Shown: positions 36,023 through 45,732, counted from the stretch's first letter. The stretch: DNA of 64,000 nt from an uncultured Chloroflexia bacterium (GCA_963768675.1 CAVYIV010000015.1:156345-220344); one strand, 5' to 3'. Notes: generated by a model not told the origin, from the sequence alone. Numbers and translations: made by a program.

Positions 36023-37429
36023 TCAGGAGGGCAGGCCGAGGCGGGCGAGATCGTCCCCGGTGAACGGTGCCGCCGCCACGGAGACTCCCTTCGGGCTGAT
36101 CGTGAACGGCCGGAGGAACAGGTCATGGCCGCTCCCCCGGGTCTTCAGGACCGCCAGCGCTCGCCCGATCTCGCGTCCCTGCAGGGTGTAGCGCAGCAGC
36201 ATCACGTTGTCGGCGAGATTCGAGACCGCCTTGCCTTCCGAGACCGAGCCGAGGCCGGTCAACTCGGCGGTCTCGAACGTCAGAAGGAGCGAGATCCCCA
36301 ACCGTGAACACCGCTGCGACAGCGAGTAGAGGTATTCGCGGAGGCGGGTTTCCTCGCCCACGGTGATCCCCAGGTCGTTGATGCTGTCGATGACGATCCG
36401 GCGCGCGCCGATCCGCGCCGCGGTGTCGAGGACCTCGTACACCCACTCATCGATGTACAGGTCGACGGGCGAGCGATAGAGGATCTCGAAGCGAGACTGG
36501 TCGATACCGAAGACTTCGAGCGTCTGGCGAATCTGGCTCTCATTCTCCTGCAGGCTCGCCAGGAGCACAGGCTCTCCCGCCTCGGCGCCGGCGCCCAGGT
36601 AATGCAGCGCGAGGACGGTCTTCCCTGCGCCGGATGGGCCGGCCAGGAGGGTCGACGAGGAGCGGAAGATCCCCCCGTCCAGCATCCGGTCGATCTCGGG
36701 GATACCCATCGATAGCCGCCCGAGTCCGACCTCGTAGCCGGTCGTCGGCGGCACGTCAGCGAGCCGTGGAAACACGTGGACACCATCAGCCGACAGGCGA
36801 TACGCGTGCTCGCCCGAAAGGTATGCGCTGCCCCGCAGCTTGAGCACGCGCAGCGTCCGCATCTGCCGGGTGCCCACGACGTCCGTGCGGAACGTGATGA
36901 TGGCGTCGGCAACGGCGAACTCGGGAGCCTCGTTGGGCTCCTCCGAGGCGTATTCGCCGACCCAGAAGACGCTCGTGGGTGTGGCGCTCAGACGCTCGGC
37001 CAGCTCGGACGCGAAACGGCGGAAGCTCTGGGCGTCCGGCGCGAAGGCTGCCATGGCCTTGAAGCTGTCGATGACGAGGATGCCCGGCGTGCGCTCGCGG
37101 AGGATCGTGGTGATCTCGTCGAGCGCGCCGTCGAGTCCCCGCCGCTGCAGGGCATCGCTCAGGCTGCCAAAGAACACCCGCCGGCCGATGGCATGCCGGT
37201 CGAAGAAGCTGAGTTCCTGCCCGTAGCGGATCATCTTGTCGAACGGCTCCGACATGGTCGCCAGGTACACAGCGGGGCGCTGCTCGGTCGCATTCTCGAA
37301 GACGTACTGCTCGGCGAGCATCGTCTTTCCCGACCCCGGCAGACCCGAAATCAGGTTGATCCCGTTGACCGGAAGACCGCCGCCCAGCACCTCGTCGAGG
37401 CGCGCGCTGCCGCTGAGGAGACGATCCAT
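36023..37429 (-). CDS. kaiC: KaiC-family double-RecA-domain ATPase
   Basis: 468 aa with two Walker A loops (GLPGSGKT and AGPSGAGKT) and an N-terminus MDRLLSGSARLDEVLGGGLPVNGINLISG. No kaiA or kaiB nearby. Confidence 0.8.
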   Translation of the reverse strand: MDRLLSGSARLDEVLGGGLPVNGINLISGLPGSGKTMLAEQYVFENATEQRPAVYLATMSEPFDKMIRYGQELSFFDRHAIGRRVFFGSLSDALQRRGLDGALDEITTILRERTPGILVIDSFKAMAAFAPDAQSFRRFASELAERLSATPTSVFWVGEYASEEPNEAPEFAVADAIITFRTDVVGTRQMRTLRVLKLRGSAYLSGEHAYRLSADGVHVFPRLADVPPTTGYEVGLGRLSMGIPEIDRMLDGGIFRSSSTLLAGPSGAGKTVLALHYLGAGAEAGEPVLLASLQENESQIRQTLEVFGIDQSRFEILYRSPVDLYIDEWVYEVLDTAARIGARRIVIDSINDLGITVGEETRLREYLYSLSQRCSRLGISLLLTFETAELTGLGSVSEGKAVSNLADNVMLLRYTLQGREIGRALAVLKTRGSGHDLFLRPFTISPKGVSVAAAPFTGDDLARLGLPS

Positions 37430-37436
37430 CAGGCTG

Positions 37437-38093
37437 TCATCTCCCTCTGATCAAGGCGCTCTCGCCGAGCAGATCCCTGACGGTCGACACGAGCACCAGT
37501 GGATCGAGCGGCTTCTTGAGGAACGCGTCCGCGCCGGCGTCGACAGCCTCTCCGGGAATGTCGAGACCGGAGATCGCCAGGATCGGCGTCGATGAGCGCG
37601 CCCTCAGGCGGCGGCAGAGATCGATCCCGGTCCCGCCCGAGATGAGGAGCTCGACGACGGCCAAGTCAGGCTGGGTCTGCCCGAATCGCTCTTCCGCATC
37701 GGCAGCGTCGAGGGTCAGAAGCACCTCATAGCCCTCGGTGCGCAGGAAGTACTCGCTCAACTCCGCGGCATAGCGATCACGCTCCGCCAGCAGGATCAGC
37801 AGCCGTCGCCCACCAGGCATCGCCGGTACGTCTCCGTCGTCGGCCATGCCGAACTGGTCCACGAGCAGGCGATGCGCTTCGGCCGGGGTCGCTCCCTCGG
37901 CGATCTGGGTCTTCAGGAACTGGAGCTGTTCGAGCTGATCTCGCGAGTAGAGCCGCTGCCCCCCCGAAGTCCGGGCGGGACGAACCGTCCCGTAGCGGGC
38001 CTCCCATGAGCGGAGCGTGCCGACCGGAACACCGAGCATGCGCGACACGGCCCCGATCGTGTAGATGGGCCGGGGATTGGATGAGGTCGTCAT
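37437..38093 (-). CDS. MerR-family HTH regulator fused to a response-regulator receiver (REC) domain
   Basis: The N-terminus YTIGAVSRMLGVPVGTLRSWEARYG is a MerR HTH. The C-terminus RRLLILLAERDRYAAELSE...DLAVVELLISGGTGIDLCRRLR...AFLKKP is a REC domain. It sits 8 nt upstream of kaiC on the same strand. Confidence 0.7.
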   Translation of the reverse strand: MTTSSNPRPIYTIGAVSRMLGVPVGTLRSWEARYGTVRPARTSGGQRLYSRDQLEQLQFLKTQIAEGATPAEAHRLLVDQFGMADDGDVPAMPGGRRLLILLAERDRYAAELSEYFLRTEGYEVLLTLDAADAEERFGQTQPDLAVVELLISGGTGIDLCRRLRARSSTPILAISGLDIPGEAVDAGADAFLKKPLDPLVLVSTVRDLLGESALIRGR

Positions 38094-38316
38094 CGACGGC
38101 GATGGTACCCGGTCATGCTGTCATCTGCAAGACATCTACACACTCTCGCTGGAACATGGCCGAGATAGTTCCCAGGCACCTCTATGCAACCTTCACAATA
38201 CATGCTATCCTCCTCGACACAAGAGATGTAGGGGGGGCGACGAGAACCAGGTGTTGCAGGTCGGGATCACCCTGGAGCCGCGCGCCAGCGGCGACGTACC
38301 GGGGTCGCGCTCCCTG

Positions 38317-39093
38317 ATGCTCGGTTTGGGCAACGCCCCTGCCGCCGAACCACGCCGGGCGCTCGTGCTCCACGATCGGCCGCCTGTTGTGGATCTCATC
38401 GAGCTGACGCTGAACCACGGCCTGTTCGTCGTCAAGGCTGCCCACAACCTGCCCGAGGCCGATGTCATCCTGGCCCGATGGCAACCGCACCTCGTGGTGG
38501 TGGACATGGATCACGATGACTCGACGGCCTTGCTCCACAGCTTGGAGACCTTGAACACCCTGACGAGGAGCTTCACGCCAGCTCTCGGCCTCACCCCCCG
38601 GGGCGACCTTGCCACGAAATTGCGGGCCTTCGAACTCGGGGTCGACGACATCCTGACGATGCCGTTCATGCCCGATGAACTGATCGCACGAGCGCTCGTC
38701 CTCGGCCGCCGGGCCACGGGGACCGAGCGGCCCTTGGTCACGGTCGTGAAGGTCGGCGAGATCGAGGTTGATATCGCCAATCACGAAATCCGGATCGGTC
38801 GGTCCGTGACCGTCCTCAGCCGGACCGAGCAGGCCCTGCTGTACCTGCTTGCCAGCCGTGCCGGACGCGTCGTGACCAGGGAAGAGATCCTCGACGTCGT
38901 CTGGGGTCCCGACTTCGTGGCCGAGAGCAACATCGTCGATCGCCACATCCGGAGCCTGCGGGTTAAGCTCCATGACGACCACCGCGACCCGCGCTTCATC
39001 GCCACGGTCTCCGGCGTCGGCTACCGCTTCATCCCGACCTTCTCGAATGCGGGCTGGACCGGCGACGCCACGCGGGACGCGCCGAGACAGTAG
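38317..39093 (+). CDS. OmpR/PhoB-family response regulator (REC plus winged-helix)
   Basis: The REC domain is RALVLHDRPPVVDLIEL...LVVVDMDHDD. The C-terminus ...EILDVVWGPDFVAESNIVDRHIRSLRVKL...VSGVGYRF is a trans_reg_C domain. Divergent from the MerR-REC/kaiC operon. Confidence 0.7.
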   Translation: MLGLGNAPAAEPRRALVLHDRPPVVDLIELTLNHGLFVVKAAHNLPEADVILARWQPHLVVVDMDHDDSTALLHSLETLNTLTRSFTPALGLTPRGDLATKLRAFELGVDDILTMPFMPDELIARALVLGRRATGTERPLVTVVKVGEIEVDIANHEIRIGRSVTVLSRTEQALLYLLASRAGRVVTREEILDVVWGPDFVAESNIVDRHIRSLRVKLHDDHRDPRFIATVSGVGYRFIPTFSNAGWTGDATRDAPRQ

Positions 39094-39882
39094 CAAGCGT
39101 TCAGCGCGTGGACCTCGTACGTGCCGGCTCCCAGCTGCGCGGTCACGGCTCGGTGGCCCTTGCCCACGGCGTCCGAGAATGACTGGACGGGAGCGGCGAC
39201 GGTCAGGCGCGCGACCGCCTCGCCACCTCGCTCGTAGCGGACCTGGGTCTCCATCCCGTAGATGTCGGTGCTCCTGACGCCCAGCTCGGCCGGCTCGCAG
39301 CCGATCAAGCCCGCGACCCAGGCCCGCGCATCCCACGTCCCCACGTCAGGACTCGACGCGATGTGCGCCGGGGCGCGAGGCGATGGCCGCGCCGATGATC
39401 AGCGCCGGCGCCATCCCGGCCGCGACCACCAGGCGCGGTGCCCCGGCCAGGGAAAGCCCCGCGCCGAGACCGACCGAGCCCGCGGCGAGCCACCGGAGCA
39501 TCGGGTCCGGGAGCATCTGCAGGGCGCTCCTTGTTCCGCCGGCCCCGGTCCGCGTCGCGCGAATTGTCCCGGGGACACGACTCGCGAGCGCCCTGCCGGC
39601 GGTCCGGGCGATCGTCAGCGCCCCCGCCAGGCGCCGCCCGGCACGCGCGTGGCGGCGGCGAGGATCATGCGCGGGCGGCGACGTGCTTGTGGCGCGCCGC
39701 CTGCCTTTCACGACGTTCATGTCTGACTCCTGCTCAGCGATGGCCGGCGCGAGAACCAGCACAGGAGCGGCCCGAAGCGGAGCCGGTCCTGCCTGACACC
39801 CGCGCCGAGCCGAGCTGCCGCCTGCATCGCTGCTACGCGGTGCAGGCCGCCTTCCGACCAGGCTTCAGCGAGGAACGGTGAG

Positions 39883-40140
39883 CTAGCCTTCCGTGTCGGC
39901 GAACGTGCCCTTCACGTCGTCTGCCGCGGTCAGCGGCTCGGTGCGCTCGCCGGACGCGAAGTCGCCGTGGAGGCCCGCCTCCAGCTTCTCTTCCGAGGTT
40001 TCTGCTTCGGTCCGCTCGCCCGCCGCGAAGTCGCCCTGGAGACCTGCTTCCAGGACTTCCTCCGGTGTTCGTGCTTCGGTCCGCTCGCCGGACGCGAAGT
40101 CGCCCGGCGGTGTTGCCATCGGCGGTGTGTTGATGCTCAC
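39883..40140 (-). CDS. acidic tandem-repeat protein (3 x 23-aa GDFA[SA]GERTE... units)
   Basis: GTG start with an AAGGAG RBS 6 nt upstream. VSINTPPMATPPGDFASGERTEARTPEEVLEAGLQ GDFAAGERTEAETSEEKLEAGLH GDFASGERTEPLTAADDVKG. Encoded by three 69-bp DNA repeats. Confidence 0.45.
   Translation of the reverse strand: MSINTPPMATPPGDFASGERTEARTPEEVLEAGLQGDFAAGERTEAETSEEKLEAGLHGDFASGERTEPLTAADDVKGTFADTEG
39915..40120. repeat. 3 x 69-bp tandem repeat (coding, inside the acidic repeat-protein gene)
   Basis: The unit ...cggtccgctcgccggacgcgaagtcgcc... recurs at ~39930, ~39999 and ~40068. Confidence 0.5.
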
Positions 40141-40266
40141 GGGAGTCTCCTTCTCGCTTTCCCAGCGACTGGGGTTGCGGCATCGCGGATCCCGCAGGCG
40201 TCGAGCAGGAGCAGTGATGGGCGACGGGCCGTCCCAATCGCGAGTCTGCTGCCTGCGCGTCTGCGC

Positions 40267-40287
40267 GTCATGACGGTCCGTCATCTC
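40267..40287. repeat. double-palindrome motif copy 1 (GTCATGAC-GGTCC-GTCATCTC)
   Basis: ~125 bp upstream of the acidic repeat-protein gene. Confidence 0.5.
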
Positions 40288-40501
40288 GCCGACACGATGC
40301 GGCGTTGCAGCCACGAATTGTTGCTCCCGGTGCGCCAGGAGGGAGTCTCGGCAGCACCGGGAGCAGTGCGGAGGGGAGGTATTCGACGTGTGCGCCTGGA
40401 TCCACGATCGATCCAGAGGCGTGCGCAATGTGCACCGTGCGGACGAGCGCGTCATTACGGCTCGTCATGAGGCTCGTCACGGCCCGATCCCGCGGAACTT
40501 G

Positions 40502-40672
40502 TCAGCCGTGCGGCGCGCCGCCCATCGTCATCGCGACGACGAGGAGGACCAGGAGGATCCCGACCAGGAGCACAGCCGACTCGAGCTTGACTCTCCGGCC
40601 CGCCCGGACCTCGGCCTGGATCTCCAGCCCGTAGCCAGAATCGTCATTGCCGCTGCGGGCTTCGATGCTCGC
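40502..40672 (-). CDS. hypothetical C-terminally anchored small protein (56 aa)
   Basis: GTG with a GGAGA RBS: VASIEARSGNDDSGYGLEIQAEVRAGRRVKLESAVLLVGILLVLLVVAMTMGGAPHG. Below the ORF-track threshold. A degenerate copy of the palindromic motif lies ~65 bp upstream. Confidence 0.2.
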   Translation of the reverse strand, partial: ASIEARSGNDDSGYGLEIQAEVRAGRRVKLESAVLLVGILLVLLVVAMTMGGAPHG

Positions 40673-40735
40673 CACAGGATCTCCGGGTGCTCCGTGGGGT
40701 CAACGAGCGGTACTCTCGGGCCTCGAGGCGCTCGT

Positions 40736-40756
40736 GTCATTACCCCCCGTCATCTC
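40736..40756. repeat. double-palindrome motif copy 2, degenerate (GTCATTAC-CCCCC-GTCATCTC)
   Basis: Upstream of the 56-aa minus-strand ORF. Confidence 0.35.
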
Positions 40757-40997
40757 GCCGGTGTCGGGCGTCGCGGACGTCGCCATGAGCCCGGCCGGAC
40801 GCGAGAGCGGGCGCTCAGGCGGTGCTTCGTCGGCCCACGAGCAGCCTCCCGCGACGTTCGGCTGATCCGAGCCACCAGGGGCGACGCTCGACGAGCGCGA
40901 CCGCGACCGTCTCGCCCTTGCCCTGCTGATCGATCGCGCCGGCCGCGGCGCCGGCCGGCGCGGCGCGAAGGCCACTCTGCGGTCTGCGCCCAGACGC

Positions 40998-41018
40998 GTC
41001 ATGACGGTCGGTCATGAC
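40998..41018. repeat. double-palindrome motif copy 3 (GTCATGAC-GGTCG-GTCATGAC)
   Basis: A perfect direct repeat of the 8-bp palindrome with a 5-bp spacer. Confidence 0.5.
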
Positions 41019-41144
41019 ACCCCGTCAACGGGATCTCGGAAACCTGGCGCGTTCAGTGCTCGAGCCGCTCGGGGCCGGCTACCCCGGCGGCGCTCAGCGA
41101 GTCGGCCGCTCGCCGGCGCTCCGCCCGCCCCAGCCCTCGGCCGG

Positions 41145-41165
41145 CGTCATGACGCGCCGTCATGA
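41145..41165. repeat. double-palindrome motif copy 4 (GTCATGAC-GCGCC-GTCATGAC)
   Basis: ~145 bp upstream of the yggT-like gene. Confidence 0.5.
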
Positions 41166-41310
41166 CACGGCGATCCGTGGGCCACACAGTGGTGCCACGC
41201 CCGCGAAGTCAGTGCGGGTGCCAAGACCGGCAACTCAAGTTGGGAGGGTGCGCAGGCCCACGATGAAGCCGCCGTGAATGGCGAGTGGATCGGCGCACAA
41301 GGAGAACAGC

Positions 41311-41745
41311 ATGGCCATCGATCAGGTCGACCAGACGGTCGTCACCCGGCAACCCACGGTGGTCGCCACGCAGGAGTCGGGACCTGCGGCGACGAGCCAG
41401 GAGACGGTGCGGACGGAAAGCCGCCAACTCACGCGGTCGGGACCCGGCGGCTCCGAGATGGCCCGCCGGATCATCGTCCTGCTGTTCGGGCTCATCCAGA
41501 TCGTCATCGGGCTGCGGATCATCCTGCTCCTGCTCGACGCGCGCACCGGCAATGCGCTGGTGTCCGGCATCCTCGACCTCAGCAAGATCTTCGTCGCACC
41601 GTTCGACGGGATCCTCAACACGAATGCCCTTTCGTCGGGTGGTTCGACCCTCGACGTGGCGGCCGTGGTCGCCTTCGTCGGCTGGTCGGTCCTCGAGCTG
41701 ATCGTGATCTGGGCCATCGGCATCTTCCGGCGCGAGCCGGCCTGA
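41311..41745 (+). CDS. YggT-family membrane protein
   Basis: AAGGAGA RBS. RRIIVLLFGLIQIVIGLRIILLLLDARTGNALVSGILDLSKIFVAPFDGIL is characteristic of YggT. Confidence 0.5.
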   Translation: MAIDQVDQTVVTRQPTVVATQESGPAATSQETVRTESRQLTRSGPGGSEMARRIIVLLFGLIQIVIGLRIILLLLDARTGNALVSGILDLSKIFVAPFDGILNTNALSSGGSTLDVAAVVAFVGWSVLELIVIWAIGIFRREPA

Positions 41746-41774
41746 CTCCCGAGCACAGGGAAGGAGCGAGCGCA

Positions 41775-42044
41775 ATGGGCCTCATCGCCTGGATCGTCGT
41801 CGGCGCGATCGCCGGCTTCCTGGCCAGCCATCTCATGCGTGCCCGCGAGAGCCTTCTGATGATGATCGTCCTTGGCATCGTCGGCGGACTCGTGGGCGGG
41901 TTCGTTGCCGCGACCGTCCTCAAGATGGGCACGGTCGACGGGATCAACATCGAGAGCATCCTCATCGCCACAGTCGGCGCGATCGCGGTCATCTTCCTCG
42001 TCCACCTCGCGACCGGCTCGCGCGGTCTTCTGAGTCGCAGGTGA
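41775..42044 (+). CDS. GlsB/YeaQ/YmgE (transglycosylase-associated) family stress membrane protein
   Basis: MGLIAWIVVGAIAGFLASHLM...IVLGIVGGLVGGFVA, with a GAAGGAG RBS. Confidence 0.65.
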   Translation: MGLIAWIVVGAIAGFLASHLMRARESLLMMIVLGIVGGLVGGFVAATVLKMGTVDGINIESILIATVGAIAVIFLVHLATGSRGLLSRR

Positions 42045-42070
42045 GGACACGCGGCAGGACGGACATTGTG

Positions 42071-42256
42071 ATGGCTGATCAGCACGTCAAAGGCACGCTG
42101 AGCCAGGCCCGGGGCAGGGTTGAGGAAGGGCTCGGCAAGGTGACCGGGGACAAGCGGGAGCAACTGCGCGGCAAGGCCAGGCAGGTCCAGGGCGACGCCC
42201 AGAAGGGACTGGGTGATCTCCAGGACGCCGTCCGAAAGCCGAAGAGCAGGCCCTGA
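42071..42256 (+). CDS. CsbD-family general stress protein
   Basis: MADQHVKGTLSQARGRVEEGLGKVTGDKREQLRGKARQVQGDAQKGLGDLQDAV is a typical CsbD repeat architecture. Confidence 0.65.
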   Translation: MADQHVKGTLSQARGRVEEGLGKVTGDKREQLRGKARQVQGDAQKGLGDLQDAVRKPKSRP

Positions 42257-42305
42257 CCCCGGACCGGGGCCTGACCGGAATGCGGTCGGCGACCGGCTCC
42301 CGCCG

Positions 42306-42326
42306 ATCATGACGGGCCGTCATGAC
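42306..42326. repeat. double-palindrome motif copy 5 (ATCATGAC-GGGCC-GTCATGAC)
   Basis: ~75 bp upstream of the glycine-zipper gene. Confidence 0.5.
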
Positions 42327-42402
42327 TCCTTCCCGTGTTGACAACACACTCAGGTTCGCAAGCGGCACTGTTCCGCTCGCACCCAGGCCAGGAGATCACG
42401 TC

Positions 42403-42690
42403 ATGACCGAGCACACGACCATCGAGCGCCAGACCGTCACCGAGACCAGCGCGGCGCCGCTCGAAACGGTCGAGAAGGACTACGCGAAGGGCGTCCCGCA
42501 CGGTGACGAGGAGGTCGGCGGCGCCTTCCTCGGCGGTGCAGCTGGTGCAGTCGCCGGAGCGATCGTTGGCGGGCCCGTCGGAGCCGTCGTCGGTGGCGCG
42601 ATCGGCGCAGCGGCCGGCGCAACGGGCGGTGCGATCGACCAGAAGCACAAGGACGACACGGTCGTCGTCACGCGCGAAGTGCGGCGCTGA
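42403..42690 (+). CDS. glycine-zipper small protein
   Basis: AGGAGA RBS. GGAFLGGAAGAVAGAIVGGPVGAVVGGAIGAAAGATGGAI contains GxxxG repeats. Confidence 0.5.
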   Translation: MTEHTTIERQTVTETSAAPLETVEKDYAKGVPHGDEEVGGAFLGGAAGAVAGAIVGGPVGAVVGGAIGAAAGATGGAIDQKHKDDTVVVTREVRR

Positions 42691-42866
42691 TCGCTCGGGT
42701 CAGCCCGGCCGGTCCTCGCTCCACTCATGTCACGACCCACCGCGCCGTATCGCGTGGCCGGTCGTGACGCAGTGAGCGCCGCGCCCCGGGCGACCGTCGA
42801 GCAAAGACGGATCGCTGGGCGCAATTCCCGGTCGAGGCCTTGCGGGCGAACAGCGGGGAGTTGGGC

Positions 42867-43043
42867 ATGAGATCCGGCTTTTCGTCTCTCGTGAGCCTCG
42901 TCTACCTCATTGTCGGTCTGGTCGTTGCGTCGAACCACTCGTTCTTCGCGAGTCTCAACGCCCTGATGCCGATCCTCTCGGCGGTCCTTGCGGTTGTGCT
43001 GTGGCCGCTCGTGCTCCTGGGTGTCGACCTGCACCTCCATTGA
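42867..43043 (+). CDS. hypothetical small membrane protein
   Basis: 58 aa: MRSGFSSLVSLVYLIVGLVVASNHSFFASLNALMPILSAVLAVVLWPLVLLG. Confidence 0.3.
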   Translation: MRSGFSSLVSLVYLIVGLVVASNHSFFASLNALMPILSAVLAVVLWPLVLLGVDLHLH

Positions 43044-43168
43044 AACAGGCGGCGGCTCTGACGGATGGCGGCGCCGATGGGGAGCATCCCCGGCCGCTGG
43101 CATCGGTGAAGCGAGAAGGTTGATGAATGGACGACATCGGTCTTCATAGTCACAGATGGGAGATCGAG

Positions 43169-43249
43169 ATGAACAGAGGCGGCGGTGTCGGGATCGTCGG
43201 CGTGATCGTGATCGTGTTGGTGATCCTCTGGTTGGTACACGTGATCTAG
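43169..43249 (+). CDS. 26-aa hydrophobic peptide
   Basis: MNRGGGVGIVGVIVIVLVILWLVHVI with a GGGAGA RBS 5 nt upstream of the ATG. A single TM helix. Confidence 0.35.
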   Translation: MNRGGGVGIVGVIVIVLVILWLVHVI

Positions 43250-43688
<439 letters not shown>

Positions 43689-43780
43689 ACCGAGGGTGCC
43701 CGTTCACAGGGCCGACGGAGTATACCGCAGGCGGTTCGTCCGGACCGGCGGGCGGCCGTCACCGTCCGGGCATCGGATCG

Positions 43781-44488
43781 TCAGCGCGCGCCCGCGGCCT
43801 CCGGCTCGGAGACGCGGACCGTCCGAAAGGCGAAGAGCTGGGTCCGCGGGTCGTGCCAGGCATGCCGGTTGAGGCCGGCCTTCTCGCAGACGGCGTCGAA
43901 CGTCTCGTCGGCGCCCCAGCCCTGGTCTGTCGCAACCTCCGGGAGGAAGAGCGCACGCCGGCCGTCGCGGACCACGATGATCCCGTCAATTCCGGGTCGG
44001 AACGCCATCGGGTCGCGGAGCGGGACGGCCGGACCGAGGATCGAGACGTCGATGTGGATCGAGGCCAGCTCGCGCTCGGTCACGGGCATGAAGCGGGGAT
44101 CTCGAACCGCCGCGGACGCACCGGCCGAGGCGACGGCGCGGCCGAGCGGTTCGTCGGCCGCGAGCGACCCGATGCAGCCGCGGAGCGAGCCGTGCTCGGT
44201 CAGCGTGACGAACGCGGCACCGGGTTGGGCGAGCGCGGTAGCAACCTCGGGCGACGGCGACGGAGCCGACGAACTGCCCGCGCTCGACGGGCCGGCAGTC
44301 ACCGCGGCGCCCGAGCGGCTTGACCGCGCGCTCCAGCGCAGGACGGCGGTGGTCACCGCGTCGCGCGCGATCCGCAGGAGCTCGCCGGCAACCTCCGGGT
44401 CAAGGGCCACCGGCTCGGGAAGGCCCGGGGACGGATCGAGCTGCGGCTCGGCCGGGCCGTCGTGGACGTGCGCGTTCGGGATGGACAT
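43781..44488 (-). CDS. AMMECR1-domain protein (AmmeMemoRadiSam system protein A)
   Basis: [29 protein letters not shown] and CEKAGL are present. Confidence 0.75.
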
Positions 44489-44628
44489 GCGGCACCTCTC
44501 TCGCCGCGGGCGACGCTAGCGACGGGCGGTGTGTCCGGCCAGAGCACAAGGTCGCGCCGTTTCCGGGCCGGGCGGCACTCGCGGGCGTCAGGCTGCCCGC
44601 AGAGACTCGGGGCGACAGGAGTTCACGC

Positions 44629-45732
44629 GTGCCGTTCGTCCACCCCCTGATCCGTTCCGCCGTGCGCGCCGCCATGCCGGCTCGCCTCGCCGAGCCGCTG
44701 CCCGACGGGAGCGTCCGCTGCGCCGTCTGCGCCCACCGCTGCCTGGTGCGGCCCGACCGCACCGGCATCTGCGGCGTACGCGTGAACCGCGACGGCAGCC
44801 TCGTGAGCACGGTCTACGGCGCCGTGGCGGCGATCGGCGTCGACCCGATCGAGAAGAAGCCGCTCTTCCACGTCGCCCCGGGGACGATCGCCTACTCGAT
44901 CGCCACACCGGGCTGCCCGTTCCACTGCAGCTTCTGCCAGAACTGGGAACTCGCCCAGGCGCCACGGCTAGGGATCTCGATCCCGACCCGGCACATGTCC
45001 CCCGACAGCGTAGTGGACGCCGCGCTCGACCACGACGCGGCCGCCATCGCCTACACGTACGTCGAGCCGACGGTCTTCCTGGAATTCGCGCTCGACACGG
45101 CGCGCCGCGCCCGCGCGGCCGGGCTCCTGAACCTCTTCGTCACCGACGGCTACGCCACGCCCGAGGCGATCGGCCTGCTGGCGCCTGTGCTCGATGCTGC
45201 GAACGTCGACCTCAAGTTGTTCTCGGACGCGTTCTACCGCCGGCGCTGCGGCGCGCGGCTCGCGCCCGTGCTCGATGCGCTGGAGGCATATCACCGGGCT
45301 GGCACGTGGCTGGAGGTGACGACGCTCGTGATCCCAGGCGAGAACGACGACCCCGCCGAGCTGCGCGAGCTCGCCGGCTGGCTGGTGGAGTACCTCGGCG
45401 CCGAGACACCCTGGCACGTGAGCCGCTTCTTCCCGGCCTTCCGGATGCGCGACGTGCCCCCGACGCCGATCGAGACCGTGCGTCGCGCCGTCGAGATCGG
45501 GCGGGACGCCGGCCTGCTCCACGTCTACGCCGGCAACGCCCCGGAGCTTCGGCTCGAGGACACCAGCTGCGCGGGATGCGGCGCGGTCCTCATCGAACGG
45601 CGCGGCTATCGCGTGTTCTCCCACCTCGAGGCCGACGGGTCGTGCCCGACCTGCGGGCGCGCGCTCGCCGGACGCGAGCTTGCCCACGGGCCCGGGAGCC
45701 CCGGGGCGCCCCGCGGCGCGCCGTGCGGGTGA
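44629..45732 (+). CDS. AmmeMemoRadiSam system radical SAM enzyme
   Basis: GTG with a GACAGGAG RBS. CPFHCSFCQNW is the CxxxCxxC motif. An N-terminal C-x2-C-x-HRC Zn/auxiliary motif and a C-terminal CAGCG...CPTCG are also present. Confidence 0.8.
   Translation: MPFVHPLIRSAVRAAMPARLAEPLPDGSVRCAVCAHRCLVRPDRTGICGVRVNRDGSLVSTVYGAVAAIGVDPIEKKPLFHVAPGTIAYSIATPGCPFHCSFCQNWELAQAPRLGISIPTRHMSPDSVVDAALDHDAAAIAYTYVEPTVFLEFALDTARRARAAGLLNLFVTDGYATPEAIGLLAPVLDAANVDLKLFSDAFYRRRCGARLAPVLDALEAYHRAGTWLEVTTLVIPGENDDPAELRELAGWLVEYLGAETPWHVSRFFPAFRMRDVPPTPIETVRRAVEIGRDAGLLHVYAGNAPELRLEDTSCAGCGAVLIERRGYRVFSHLEADGSCPTCGRALAGRELAHGPGSPGAPRGAPCG

Follow-up and report, generated by a model that had tools for sequence, protein, structure and literature searches.

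A conserved composite promoter element associated with an orphan OmpR-type regulator gene in Limnocylindrales-type Chloroflexota

The stretch of DNA considered here, hereafter the window, comprises 64,000 nucleotides (nt) from an uncultured Chloroflexia bacterium (GCA_963768675.1, CAVYIV010000015.1:156345-220344). Between positions 40267 and 42326 it carries six genuine copies of a double motif, (gtc)ATGAC-GGnCC-GTCATGAC, all of them intergenic and none recurring in the rest of the 64 kb, in the midst of genes for small membrane and stress-type proteins. As judged from their sequence and conservation, the GTCATGAC pairs are the upstream halves of composite promoters, in which the motif is followed after 18 nt by a hexamer of the type cAcAcT. 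The gene of a response regulator of the OmpR/PhoB family lies about 1.2 kb from this cluster and is the candidate for the factor that reads it. The predicted promoters (P1 to P6, with scores from a 45-nt weight matrix) and the genes of the locus are given below in the order of their coordinates; protein lengths are in amino acids (aa).

38251-39093, plus strand: orphan OmpR/PhoB-family response regulator (P0001), 280 aa; a contig of 398 kb carries the exact protein.
39346-39762, minus strand: 138-aa protein with a C-terminal membrane segment and no Pfam family, second gene of the P1 operon.
39883-40140, minus strand: acidic repeat protein, 85 aa, with a GTG start and an AAGGAG ribosome-binding site, predicted target of P1 and P2.
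40243-40287, minus strand: P1, GAGATGAC-GGACC-GTCATGAC, 18 nt, CAGACT; 46.5 bits; leftward, to the acidic-repeat operon.
40427-40471, minus strand: P2, CTCATGAC-GAGCC-GTAATGAC, 18 nt, CACATT; 37.8 bits; leftward.
40502-40675, minus strand: 57-aa single-pass membrane protein, predicted target of P3 and possibly of P4.
40712-40756, minus strand: P3, GAGATGAC-GGGGG-GTAATGAC, 18 nt, GAGAGT; 33.8 bits; to the gene of the 57-aa membrane protein.
40974-41018, minus strand: P4, the perfect palindrome GTCATGAC-CGACC-GTCATGAC, 18 nt, CAGAGT; leftward.
41146-41190, plus strand: P5, GTCATGAC-GCGCC-GTCATGAC, 18 nt, CACAGT; 41.0 bits; to the YggT-like, YeaQ/GlsB and CsbD genes.
41311-41745, plus strand: YggT-like membrane protein (Pfam YGGT, 1e-4, below the curated cut-off), first gene behind P5.
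41775-42044, plus strand: YeaQ/GlsB/YmgE-type protein (Transgly_assoc, Pfam PF04226, 30.5 bits), P5 unit.
42071-42256, plus strand: CsbD-like general stress protein (Pfam CsbD, 4e-14), P5 unit.
42306-42350, plus strand: P6, ATCATGAC-GGGCC-GTCATGAC, 18 nt, CACACT; 41.8 bits; to the glycine-zipper gene.
42403-42690, plus strand: glycine-zipper protein (Pfam Gly-zipper, 3e-6, just under the curated cut-off), predicted target of P6.
42840-43043, plus strand: 67-aa two-helix membrane protein, open reading frame (ORF) behind the glycine-zipper gene.
43169-43249, plus strand: tiny hydrophobic peptide of 26 aa (MNRGGGVGIVGVIVIVLVILWLVHVI), ORF after the 67-aa gene.

The motif is strongly enriched at this place. 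The 8-mer GTCATGAC occurs seven times in the window against 1.05 expected, and the pair GTCATGAC-N5-GTCATGAC, with up to three mismatches, is matched seven times against 0.26 expected, always within 40267-42407, so that the pairs reported in the initial annotation are real and clustered. The match at 42387 is merely the start codon context of the glycine-zipper gene (gtcATGacc) and probably arose by chance. Six copies are thus present where five had been counted, the one at 40451-40471, GTCATTAC-GGCTC-GTCATGAG, having been overlooked. Three copies had been called perfect; those at 40998 and 41146 (then given as 41145) are perfect and the only such copies, while that at 42306 opens with ATCATGAC and has one mismatch. 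The degenerate copies keep GTCATGAC or GTAATGAC on one side and ATGAC alone on the other, and what looks like a direct repeat of 13 bp can equally be read as a 21-bp palindrome with the conserved core ATGACGGnCCGTCAT. The reported placement of 65-145 bp upstream of genes holds, with about 61-148 nt between motif and start codon for the four sites directly ahead of genes, but the predicted promoter of the copy at 40998, P4, faces leftward and thus away from the YggT-like gene.

Each copy in the window is followed exactly 18 nt downstream, and on one strand only, by a -10-like nAnAnT, four of the six pointing leftward and two rightward. The combined pattern ATGAC-N5-GTMATGAC-N18-NANANT has exactly six matches in the window, against 0.00 expected from 100 shuffles. 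A 45-nt weight matrix that was trained on other genomes only and then applied to the window gives the six sites 34-46 bits, each on one strand (P4, for example, scores 39.8 bits on the minus and 17 bits on the plus strand), and the rest of the 64 kb at most 12 bits, save for the reverse strands of the same six sites. When sites from related loci are aligned in a single orientation, the logo built from 152 of them reads (g t/a c)ATGAC-G-G-n-C-C-GTCATGAC, in which GTC is poorly conserved on the distal side and GAC hardly varies on the proximal side, and 18 nt on there is a second conserved block, c-A-c-A-c-T (A 0.74, A 0.60, T 0.76). As the original search pattern had fixed part of the motif, the test was redone with a single GTCATGAC as the anchor. 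Across 541 kb of related loci, offset 18 then has 101 occurrences of nAnnnT, compared with 1-8 for each of the other offsets from 12 to 24, and an exact distal ATGAC is found in 77 of these 101, although it had not been required.

With the hexamer taken as -12 to -7 and the transcription starts predicted from it, the palindrome is centred at about -41, and its proximal unit spans -38 to -31 and overlaps the -35 region, ATGACg occupying the position of TTGACA with a 17-bp spacer to the -10. The hexamer keeps A-11 and T-7 and lacks T-12, the base at -12 being C or G in 89% of the sites of the logo, and a scan of 39800-43900 for the sigma-70 consensus returned no canonical promoter; a core promoter of this kind looks activator-dependent. 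On the predicted starts, the layout is that of class II activation, namely a factor site overlapping the -35, a fixed distance to the -10 and a poor core promoter. The conserved inner inverted pair, ATGAC/GTCAT, has its centres 10 bp apart. Several perfectly symmetric sites in related loci have a -10 on both sides (L086, L103, L115, L068); in L086, a single site is flanked by GACACT on either side and separates a YggT-like gene, which runs leftward, from a CsbD gene, which runs rightward.

The six predicted promoters would serve four transcription units: the acidic-repeat operon (P1, P2), the 57-aa protein (P3, P4), the YggT-YeaQ-CsbD genes (P5), and the glycine-zipper gene with the small membrane proteins (P6). 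Downstream of P2 and P4, neither an ORF nor a conserved sequence of their own was found. The simplest reading of P2 and P4 is that they are tandem promoters with leaders of about 300 nt, and they may yield an untranslated RNA; P2 in particular is probably a second, upstream promoter of the acidic-repeat operon or the source of such an RNA. The leader of P2 contains, at 40325-40371, an 11-bp perfect inverted repeat, GCTCCCGGTGC ... GCACCGGGAGC, with the 20-nt loop AGGAGGGAG (plus strand), which is followed by no T-run and has no Rfam match.

The distribution of the motif was then followed beyond this genome. An exact scan for the perfect motif in one genome per species, covering 185,579 species, returned at least 120 loci, about 16 of them from Chloroflexota among the matches listed. 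These Chloroflexota matches come from metagenome-assembled genomes (MAGs) labelled 'uncultured Chloroflexia' or 'Candidatus Limnocylindrales' and have GGNCC-like spacers; most of the other matches come from scattered taxa and unrelated contexts. An nAnnnT at +18 on either strand accompanies 24 perfect sites among the matches listed, and 16 of these are the Chloroflexota loci. The perfect motifs outside Chloroflexota (Pseudomonas, Stenotrophomonas, Oscillibacter and others) have no -10 at +18, save in eight AT-rich genomes, which is the chance level, and they look like unrelated conserved sequences or repeats. In the Oscillibacter loci (for example L005, L029 and L054), the copies are flanked by inverted tgaa/ttca and an A/T-rich run, which gives these Oscillospiraceae copies the appearance of a family of terminators or repeats.

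Among the Chloroflexota motif loci listed, the 10 that carry the OmpR-type gene also have, by blastn and tblastn comparison with the window, YggT-like, YeaQ and CsbD genes beside the sites. Only four of 99 composite sites lie inside called genes, which make up 68% of the DNA, so that 96% are intergenic; separately made gene annotations of named Ca. Limnocylindrales assemblies (GCA_036794345.1 and others) concur. The search for a positional bias that the initial annotation had proposed therefore comes out strongly in favor of intergenic placement. Behind 121 oriented sites, the largest group of ORFs is YggT-like (21), followed by secreted ice-binding-like proteins (9), YeaQ/GlsB (8), DksA/TraR-type zinc-finger proteins (6), the acidic repeat protein (5) and tiny membrane families (5 and 4), with smaller groups of DUF5661, DUF1269, Gly-zipper, CsbD and the 67-aa membrane protein. 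To judge from these comparisons, the composite promoter is conserved and oriented before small stress and membrane genes in Limnocylindrales-type Chloroflexota. The earlier proposal that the motif is the cis-regulatory site of a transcription factor acting as a dimer or multimer, and that it defines a regulon of small stress-type genes, is supported by these data, but the regulon is not a local one, its design being shared by many Limnocylindrales-type genomes and metagenomes. Some further occurrences of the perfect double motif are of a different nature: one Chloroflexia MAG has an identical 50-nt segment with the double motif in two places (L003:4138, L037:5796), and L036:7348-7381 and L073:4602-4635 have a three-unit site, GTCGTGAC-CGCCT-GTCATGAC-CGCCT-GTCATGAC. 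Full-text literature searches for GTCATGAC gave primers or unrelated constructs only, and those for Limnocylindr* with stress and response regulator gave nothing relevant.

It had been stated that no regulator gene in the window obviously matches the motif. The OmpR/PhoB-family gene at 38251-39093 is nevertheless the only regulator that co-occurs with it: among the matches listed, orthologues with 57-72% identity (window 38314-39093) stand within 8 kb in 10 of the 16 Chloroflexota loci, and this is the only regulator family common to them. The association was also examined in reverse. An alignment of the ten orthologues was used to collect 80 loci, 364 kb in all, from metagenomes of soils, sediments and wetlands, with the regulator as the only criterion, and in these loci, with up to two mismatches, 38 sites occur at the spacing N5 against 0-7 at any other spacing from N0 to N12. 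At least one site is present in 33 of the 80 loci. The commonest position is 40-250 bp past the stop codon of the regulator gene, where GAGATGAC-GGACC-GTCATGAC points in the same direction as the regulator, and a second class of sites lies 90-180 bp upstream of it, facing away toward a divergent YggT-YeaQ operon. By these genomic comparisons, the composite element and one regulator subfamily are tightly and reciprocally associated.

The regulator has the two domains of the OmpR/PhoB family, a receiver and a winged helix, with Trans_reg_C (PF00486) at 3e-24 and Response_reg (PF00072) barely recognized at 30.8 bits against a cut-off of 30.2. Its nearest solved structures are KdpE, PhoP, RegX3, PrrA and MtrA (about 1e-24, full length), it stays below every NCBIfam response-regulator cut-off, and its close relatives are assigned to Candidatus Limnocylindrales by NCBI. 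The receiver pocket is incomplete: the phospho-acceptor Asp (VVD64), which lies in an invariant DMDHDDS motif, and the Thr are kept, but all 76 sequences have M, V, T or L in place of the conserved Lys and I or V in place of the aromatic switch residue, and 67 have HD as the acidic pair. No kinase family is among the gene families common to the 80 regulator-anchored loci, and a crude scan for H-box and G2-box found no histidine kinase beside the regulator or elsewhere in the window. Because the receiver has lost the Lys, the aromatic switch and one acidic residue and has no linked kinase, the protein is probably controlled by its abundance, a ligand or a partner rather than by phosphorylation. 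At 1-5 kb downstream of the OmpR-type gene, a named Ca. Limnocylindrales MAG has, as the only kinases nearby, two of the HisKA_3 type, paired with a response regulator of the GerE type (L201:11696-16393); these form a NarL-type system of their own and are unlikely partners of the OmpR-type protein.

The region upstream of the regulator gene, 38094-38250, is unusually AT-rich for a genome of about 70% GC. It holds GGTCATGCTGTCATCTG, in which two GTCAT units 8 bp apart are followed by CACACT at a non-standard distance, an arrangement that breaks the rule of the composite promoter and could be another type of site for the regulator or a site for its MerR-type neighbor. This neighbor is part of a divergent pair on the minus strand (36023-38093), consisting of a gene for a MerR-type helix-turn-helix plus receiver protein (37437-38093) and a gene for a double-domain KaiC-like ATPase (36023-37429; NCBIfam KaiC, 191 bits, under the cut-off). 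Both are found in none of 96 related loci, so their linkage is specific to this genome.

Several of the predicted targets in the window have relatives behind the same element. The acidic repeat protein consists of three tandem GDFA(S/A)GERTE(A/P)xT..E(E/K)..LEAGL repeats, is very acidic and belongs to no Pfam family; a role in stress, as a hydrophilin-like or a cation-binding protein, is conceivable. Its homologues in four other regulator-anchored loci stand behind the same promoter type, and homologues follow sites in L144, L187 and L200. Homologues of the 138-aa protein are present in seven loci, in L010 directly behind a site, and the 57-aa membrane protein belongs to a family of four downstream of sites. 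A homologue of the glycine-zipper protein follows a site in L185. The 67-aa membrane protein, which is probably co-transcribed from P6, is present in three regulator-anchored loci and has a homologue directly behind a site in L174. The tiny hydrophobic peptide is probably also a member of the regulon: its stretch, 43127-43249, is conserved at the nucleotide level (77-84%, blastn), and the matches (L081:6240-6313, L039:2832-2927, L077:2372-2446) lie about 100 bp from a perfect motif site. Further downstream follow a tRNA gene (43615-43688, minus strand, 63 bits), an AMMECR1-family gene (43781-44488, minus strand) and, adjacent to it, a long ORF (44320-45732, plus strand) that resembles a radical-SAM protein in its CxxxCxxC. 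The last two may be an AmmeMemoRadiSam-type pair; they seem unrelated to the motif.

It is proposed, with a probability of about 0.55, that the orphan and probably phosphorylation-independent OmpR-type regulator binds the palindrome as a class II activator. A dimer of the protein encoded at 38251-39093 would sit on the 21-bp palindrome by way of the inner inverted pair ATGAC/GTCAT and recruit the housekeeping RNA polymerase to promoters that are otherwise weak, and perfectly symmetric sites would fire in both directions. In many relatives, the regulator gene itself would stand behind a Crp-type class II promoter, which would make the system a cascade. The proposal is drawn from three lines of evidence, namely that this is the sole regulator linked to the motif, that the geometry is of class II with a weak -10, and that the OmpR family offers precedents.

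Several points weigh against this proposal. The link between regulator and sites is one of guilt by association, and among the matches listed, six of the 16 motif-anchored loci have no regulator gene within 8 kb; as the comparison covered individual loci, the factor may be another one, encoded elsewhere. An odd-length palindrome is not the usual target of OmpR-family proteins, most of which recognize direct repeats at a spacing of 10-11 bp, and the regulator is no closer to CopR/CusR than to KdpE, PhoP or PhoB. P2 and P4 have no identifiable product, and no site of the composite class faces the regulator gene, which leaves the system without a signature of autoregulation. Finally, the proximal half is in itself a reasonable -35 (TGAC) at the ideal spacing of 17 bp, so that a protein lying over -51 to -31 could repress.

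This last point leads to the rival that survives best, although it is rather unlikely. The promoters would be the same, but the OmpR-type neighbor or another dimeric factor would act as a repressor, on an operator laid over a functional -35 (ATGACg-N17-cAcAcT), and stress would relieve the repression. TGAC stands exactly at the position of the TTGACA core with a 17-bp spacer, the GAC of the proximal half is kept far more strictly than the GTC of the distal half, as would be expected of an element that serves as both operator and -35, and stress genes are commonly held off by repressors. Against it speak the -10 without T-12 and the null result of the sigma-70 scan, which give the promoter an activator-dependent look, as well as the centre near -41 and the use of one site in two directions, which are hallmarks of class II activation as seen with AgrR and CusR (PMC7380067, PMC10920338).

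It is distinctly unlikely that the motif is recognized by a different factor with its gene elsewhere, such as the Crp/Fnr-type neighbor of the regulator in many relatives, and that the OmpR-type gene is merely co-localised. A palindrome centred at about -41 is the classic Crp/Fnr class II geometry, and a Crp-like gene (HTH_Crp_2) is the divergent upstream neighbor of the regulator in 28 of the 80 regulator-anchored loci. Nonetheless, neither the 64-kb window nor any of the 16 motif-anchored loci among the matches listed contains this gene, whereas 10 of these 16 have the OmpR-type gene, and they share no second regulator family. Moreover, the Crp-like gene has, in 23 of 27 loci, a box of its own beside its start, TGTGAACTCTGACA-N22-TAGGTT, centred at -41.5 and facing the OmpR-type gene, and the intergenic region between the two genes has no GTCATGAC site. 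The Crp-like protein was accordingly rejected as the cognate factor. The initial annotation had set the motif apart from CRP/FNR boxes, and rightly so, since it is a 7-1-7 palindrome, unlike TGTGA-N6-TCACA or TTGAT-N4-ATCAA, and no Crp/Fnr gene is linked to it in the window. The Crp-like box is very well conserved (for example L126:716-760 and L157:699-745, in loci ranging from L124 to L200). As it faces the OmpR-type gene, the Crp-like protein is read as the upstream regulator of that gene in those lineages, which would fit a pseudo-receiver protein controlled through its abundance. In the window, the corresponding position is taken by the MerR-receiver and KaiC-like genes.

Another explanation, and quite an improbable one, is a promoter of an alternative stress sigma factor, with GTCATGAC as the -35, CACACT as the -10 and no separate regulator. 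Two blocks at a fixed spacing precede genes that elsewhere belong to sigma-B, sigma-S or EcfG regulons (CsbD, YeaQ/GlsB), but the distal half, at -48 to -44, is out of reach of sigma region 4 and is nevertheless present in 77 of 101 sites, and the dyad symmetry and the GGnCC centre would go unexplained. Queries with RpoD, RpoE and SigB gave no match in the window or in the Chloroflexota motif loci, and, as had been remarked at the outset, the element is unlike SigB/SigF promoters, with no match to a consensus of the type GTTT-N12-17-GGGTAT. Last, a miniature mobile repeat (miniature inverted-repeat transposable element or repetitive extragenic palindrome), as the initial annotation had also considered, or a transcribed RNA hairpin, which several copies within 2 kb, the self-complementarity of the perfect copies and the 8-bp stem that GTCATGAC-N5-GTCATGAC can form might suggest, is highly improbable, because the six 95-nt segments share only the motif and the A/A/T of the -10 and have no terminal inverted repeats or target-site duplications, the same element stands ahead of orthologous genes in many genomes, there is no covariation (in the outer three pairs, the 3' side is GAC at about 99% and the 5' side G at 50%, T at 30% and C at 46%), an Rfam scan of 38000-44000 finds the tRNA only, and the predicted start lies downstream of the motif, which would for the most part not be transcribed.

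Soils, sediments and fresh water harbor Limnocylindria and related Chloroflexota in abundance; these bacteria are essentially uncultured, and to our knowledge nothing is known of their gene regulation. The present analysis yields a precise promoter grammar in the form of a 45-nt composite element, a candidate regulator and a defined set of targets, which includes families of unknown function such as the YggT-like proteins, the acidic GDFAxGERTE repeat protein, DUF5661, DUF1269 and tiny hydrophobic peptides. The composite element is ready for use in delineating regulons in MAGs and metatranscriptomes, and it opens gene regulation in an abundant uncultured lineage to direct tests with the purified protein and the 21-mer. 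Beyond the class II activator proposed above, a wider role may tentatively be considered, in which the general stress response of Limnocylindria would have the pseudo-receiver OmpR-type orphan as its master switch, an activator-based alternative to sigma-B, RpoS and EcfG. In the same speculative picture, the protein might bind head-to-head on the odd-length palindrome and fire divergent promoters, and its level might be set by lineage-specific modules, conceivably the Crp-type regulator in many relatives and the MerR-receiver plus KaiC-like operon in this genome.

Among known systems, the copper boxes of CopR, CusR, PcoR and AgrR come closest. The E. coli CusR box is ATGACAA-NN-TTGTCAT, and the half-site of PhoB is TGTCA. 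AgrR, of the OmpR family, binds the inverted repeat ATKACA-N4-TGTMAT, of which the proximal half is better conserved and which is accompanied by an extra in-phase half-site, and it works as a type II activator without being phosphorylated (PMC7380067). In the case of CusR, one box suffices to switch on the two divergent cus operons (PMC10920338). The half-sites are alike, ATGACA...TGTCAT in the AgrR box (PMC7380067) and ATGACG-N3-CGTCAT here, as are the class II position, the stronger proximal half and the extra in-phase half-site; the phosphorylation-free activity of AgrR and the divergent use of the CusR box also resemble what is proposed here (PMC7380067, PMC10920338). The differences are that the half-site centres are 10 bp apart here instead of 11 bp, the spacer being one bp shorter, that the centre is a GC-rich GGnCC, and that the targets are small stress and membrane proteins of Chloroflexota rather than metal efflux systems of Proteobacteria. 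In addition, the regulator here has a degenerate receiver and no partner kinase, and with 104.6 bits against a cut-off of 279.2, it falls outside the heavy-metal subfamily TIGR01387.

PhoB is another OmpR-family winged-helix protein, and its TGTCA(T)-type half-sites replace or overlap the -35 of activator-dependent promoters, which is the likeness to the site described here. The pho box differs in that it consists of 11-bp direct repeats, is bound head-to-tail by phosphorylated PhoB and lies nearer the -10, whereas the present site is palindromic, would work in two directions and is centred at about -41, and the receiver of its candidate regulator is degenerate; against the PhoB model, this regulator scores 121 bits, with a cut-off of 296. 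Closer in the state of the receiver are the atypical regulators HP1043/HsrA, ChxR, NblR and GlnR, which likewise are orphan genes with a degenerate receiver pocket and presumably constitutive dimerisation (PMC8345958, PMC3960148). HP1043, with its atypical receiver, has been modelled head-to-head on DNA, the same binding mode as is suggested here (PMC8345958). There is, however, no close sequence kinship to these proteins (NblR, 80 bits against a cut-off of 300), and motif, regulon and lineage differ. The system would thus be a candidate case of an OmpR-family protein with a degenerate receiver on a palindromic, bidirectional class II site.

With Crp/Fnr class II sites, the element shares a dyad-symmetric site about 41 bp upstream, laid over the -35 and able to serve divergent promoters. 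The known Crp/Fnr boxes are of even length (5-6-5 or 5-4-5), whereas the present site is odd, 7-1-7, and its linked regulator is of the OmpR type; the Crp-like protein of the relatives has its own TGTGA-N4-TGACA box, which is unlike the motif. The content of the regulon recalls the sigma-B, RpoS and EcfG/PhyR stress regulons, with CsbD, YeaQ/GlsB/YmgE, Gly-zipper, DUF1269 and small membrane proteins, but no sigma gene is linked to it, and control is apparently exerted through a DNA-binding, response-regulator-like protein at sigma-A-type promoters. From sequence comparison, then, the regulator subfamily and its regulon appear to be new, and the mechanism appears to be of a known type, that of an OmpR-family palindromic class II box.

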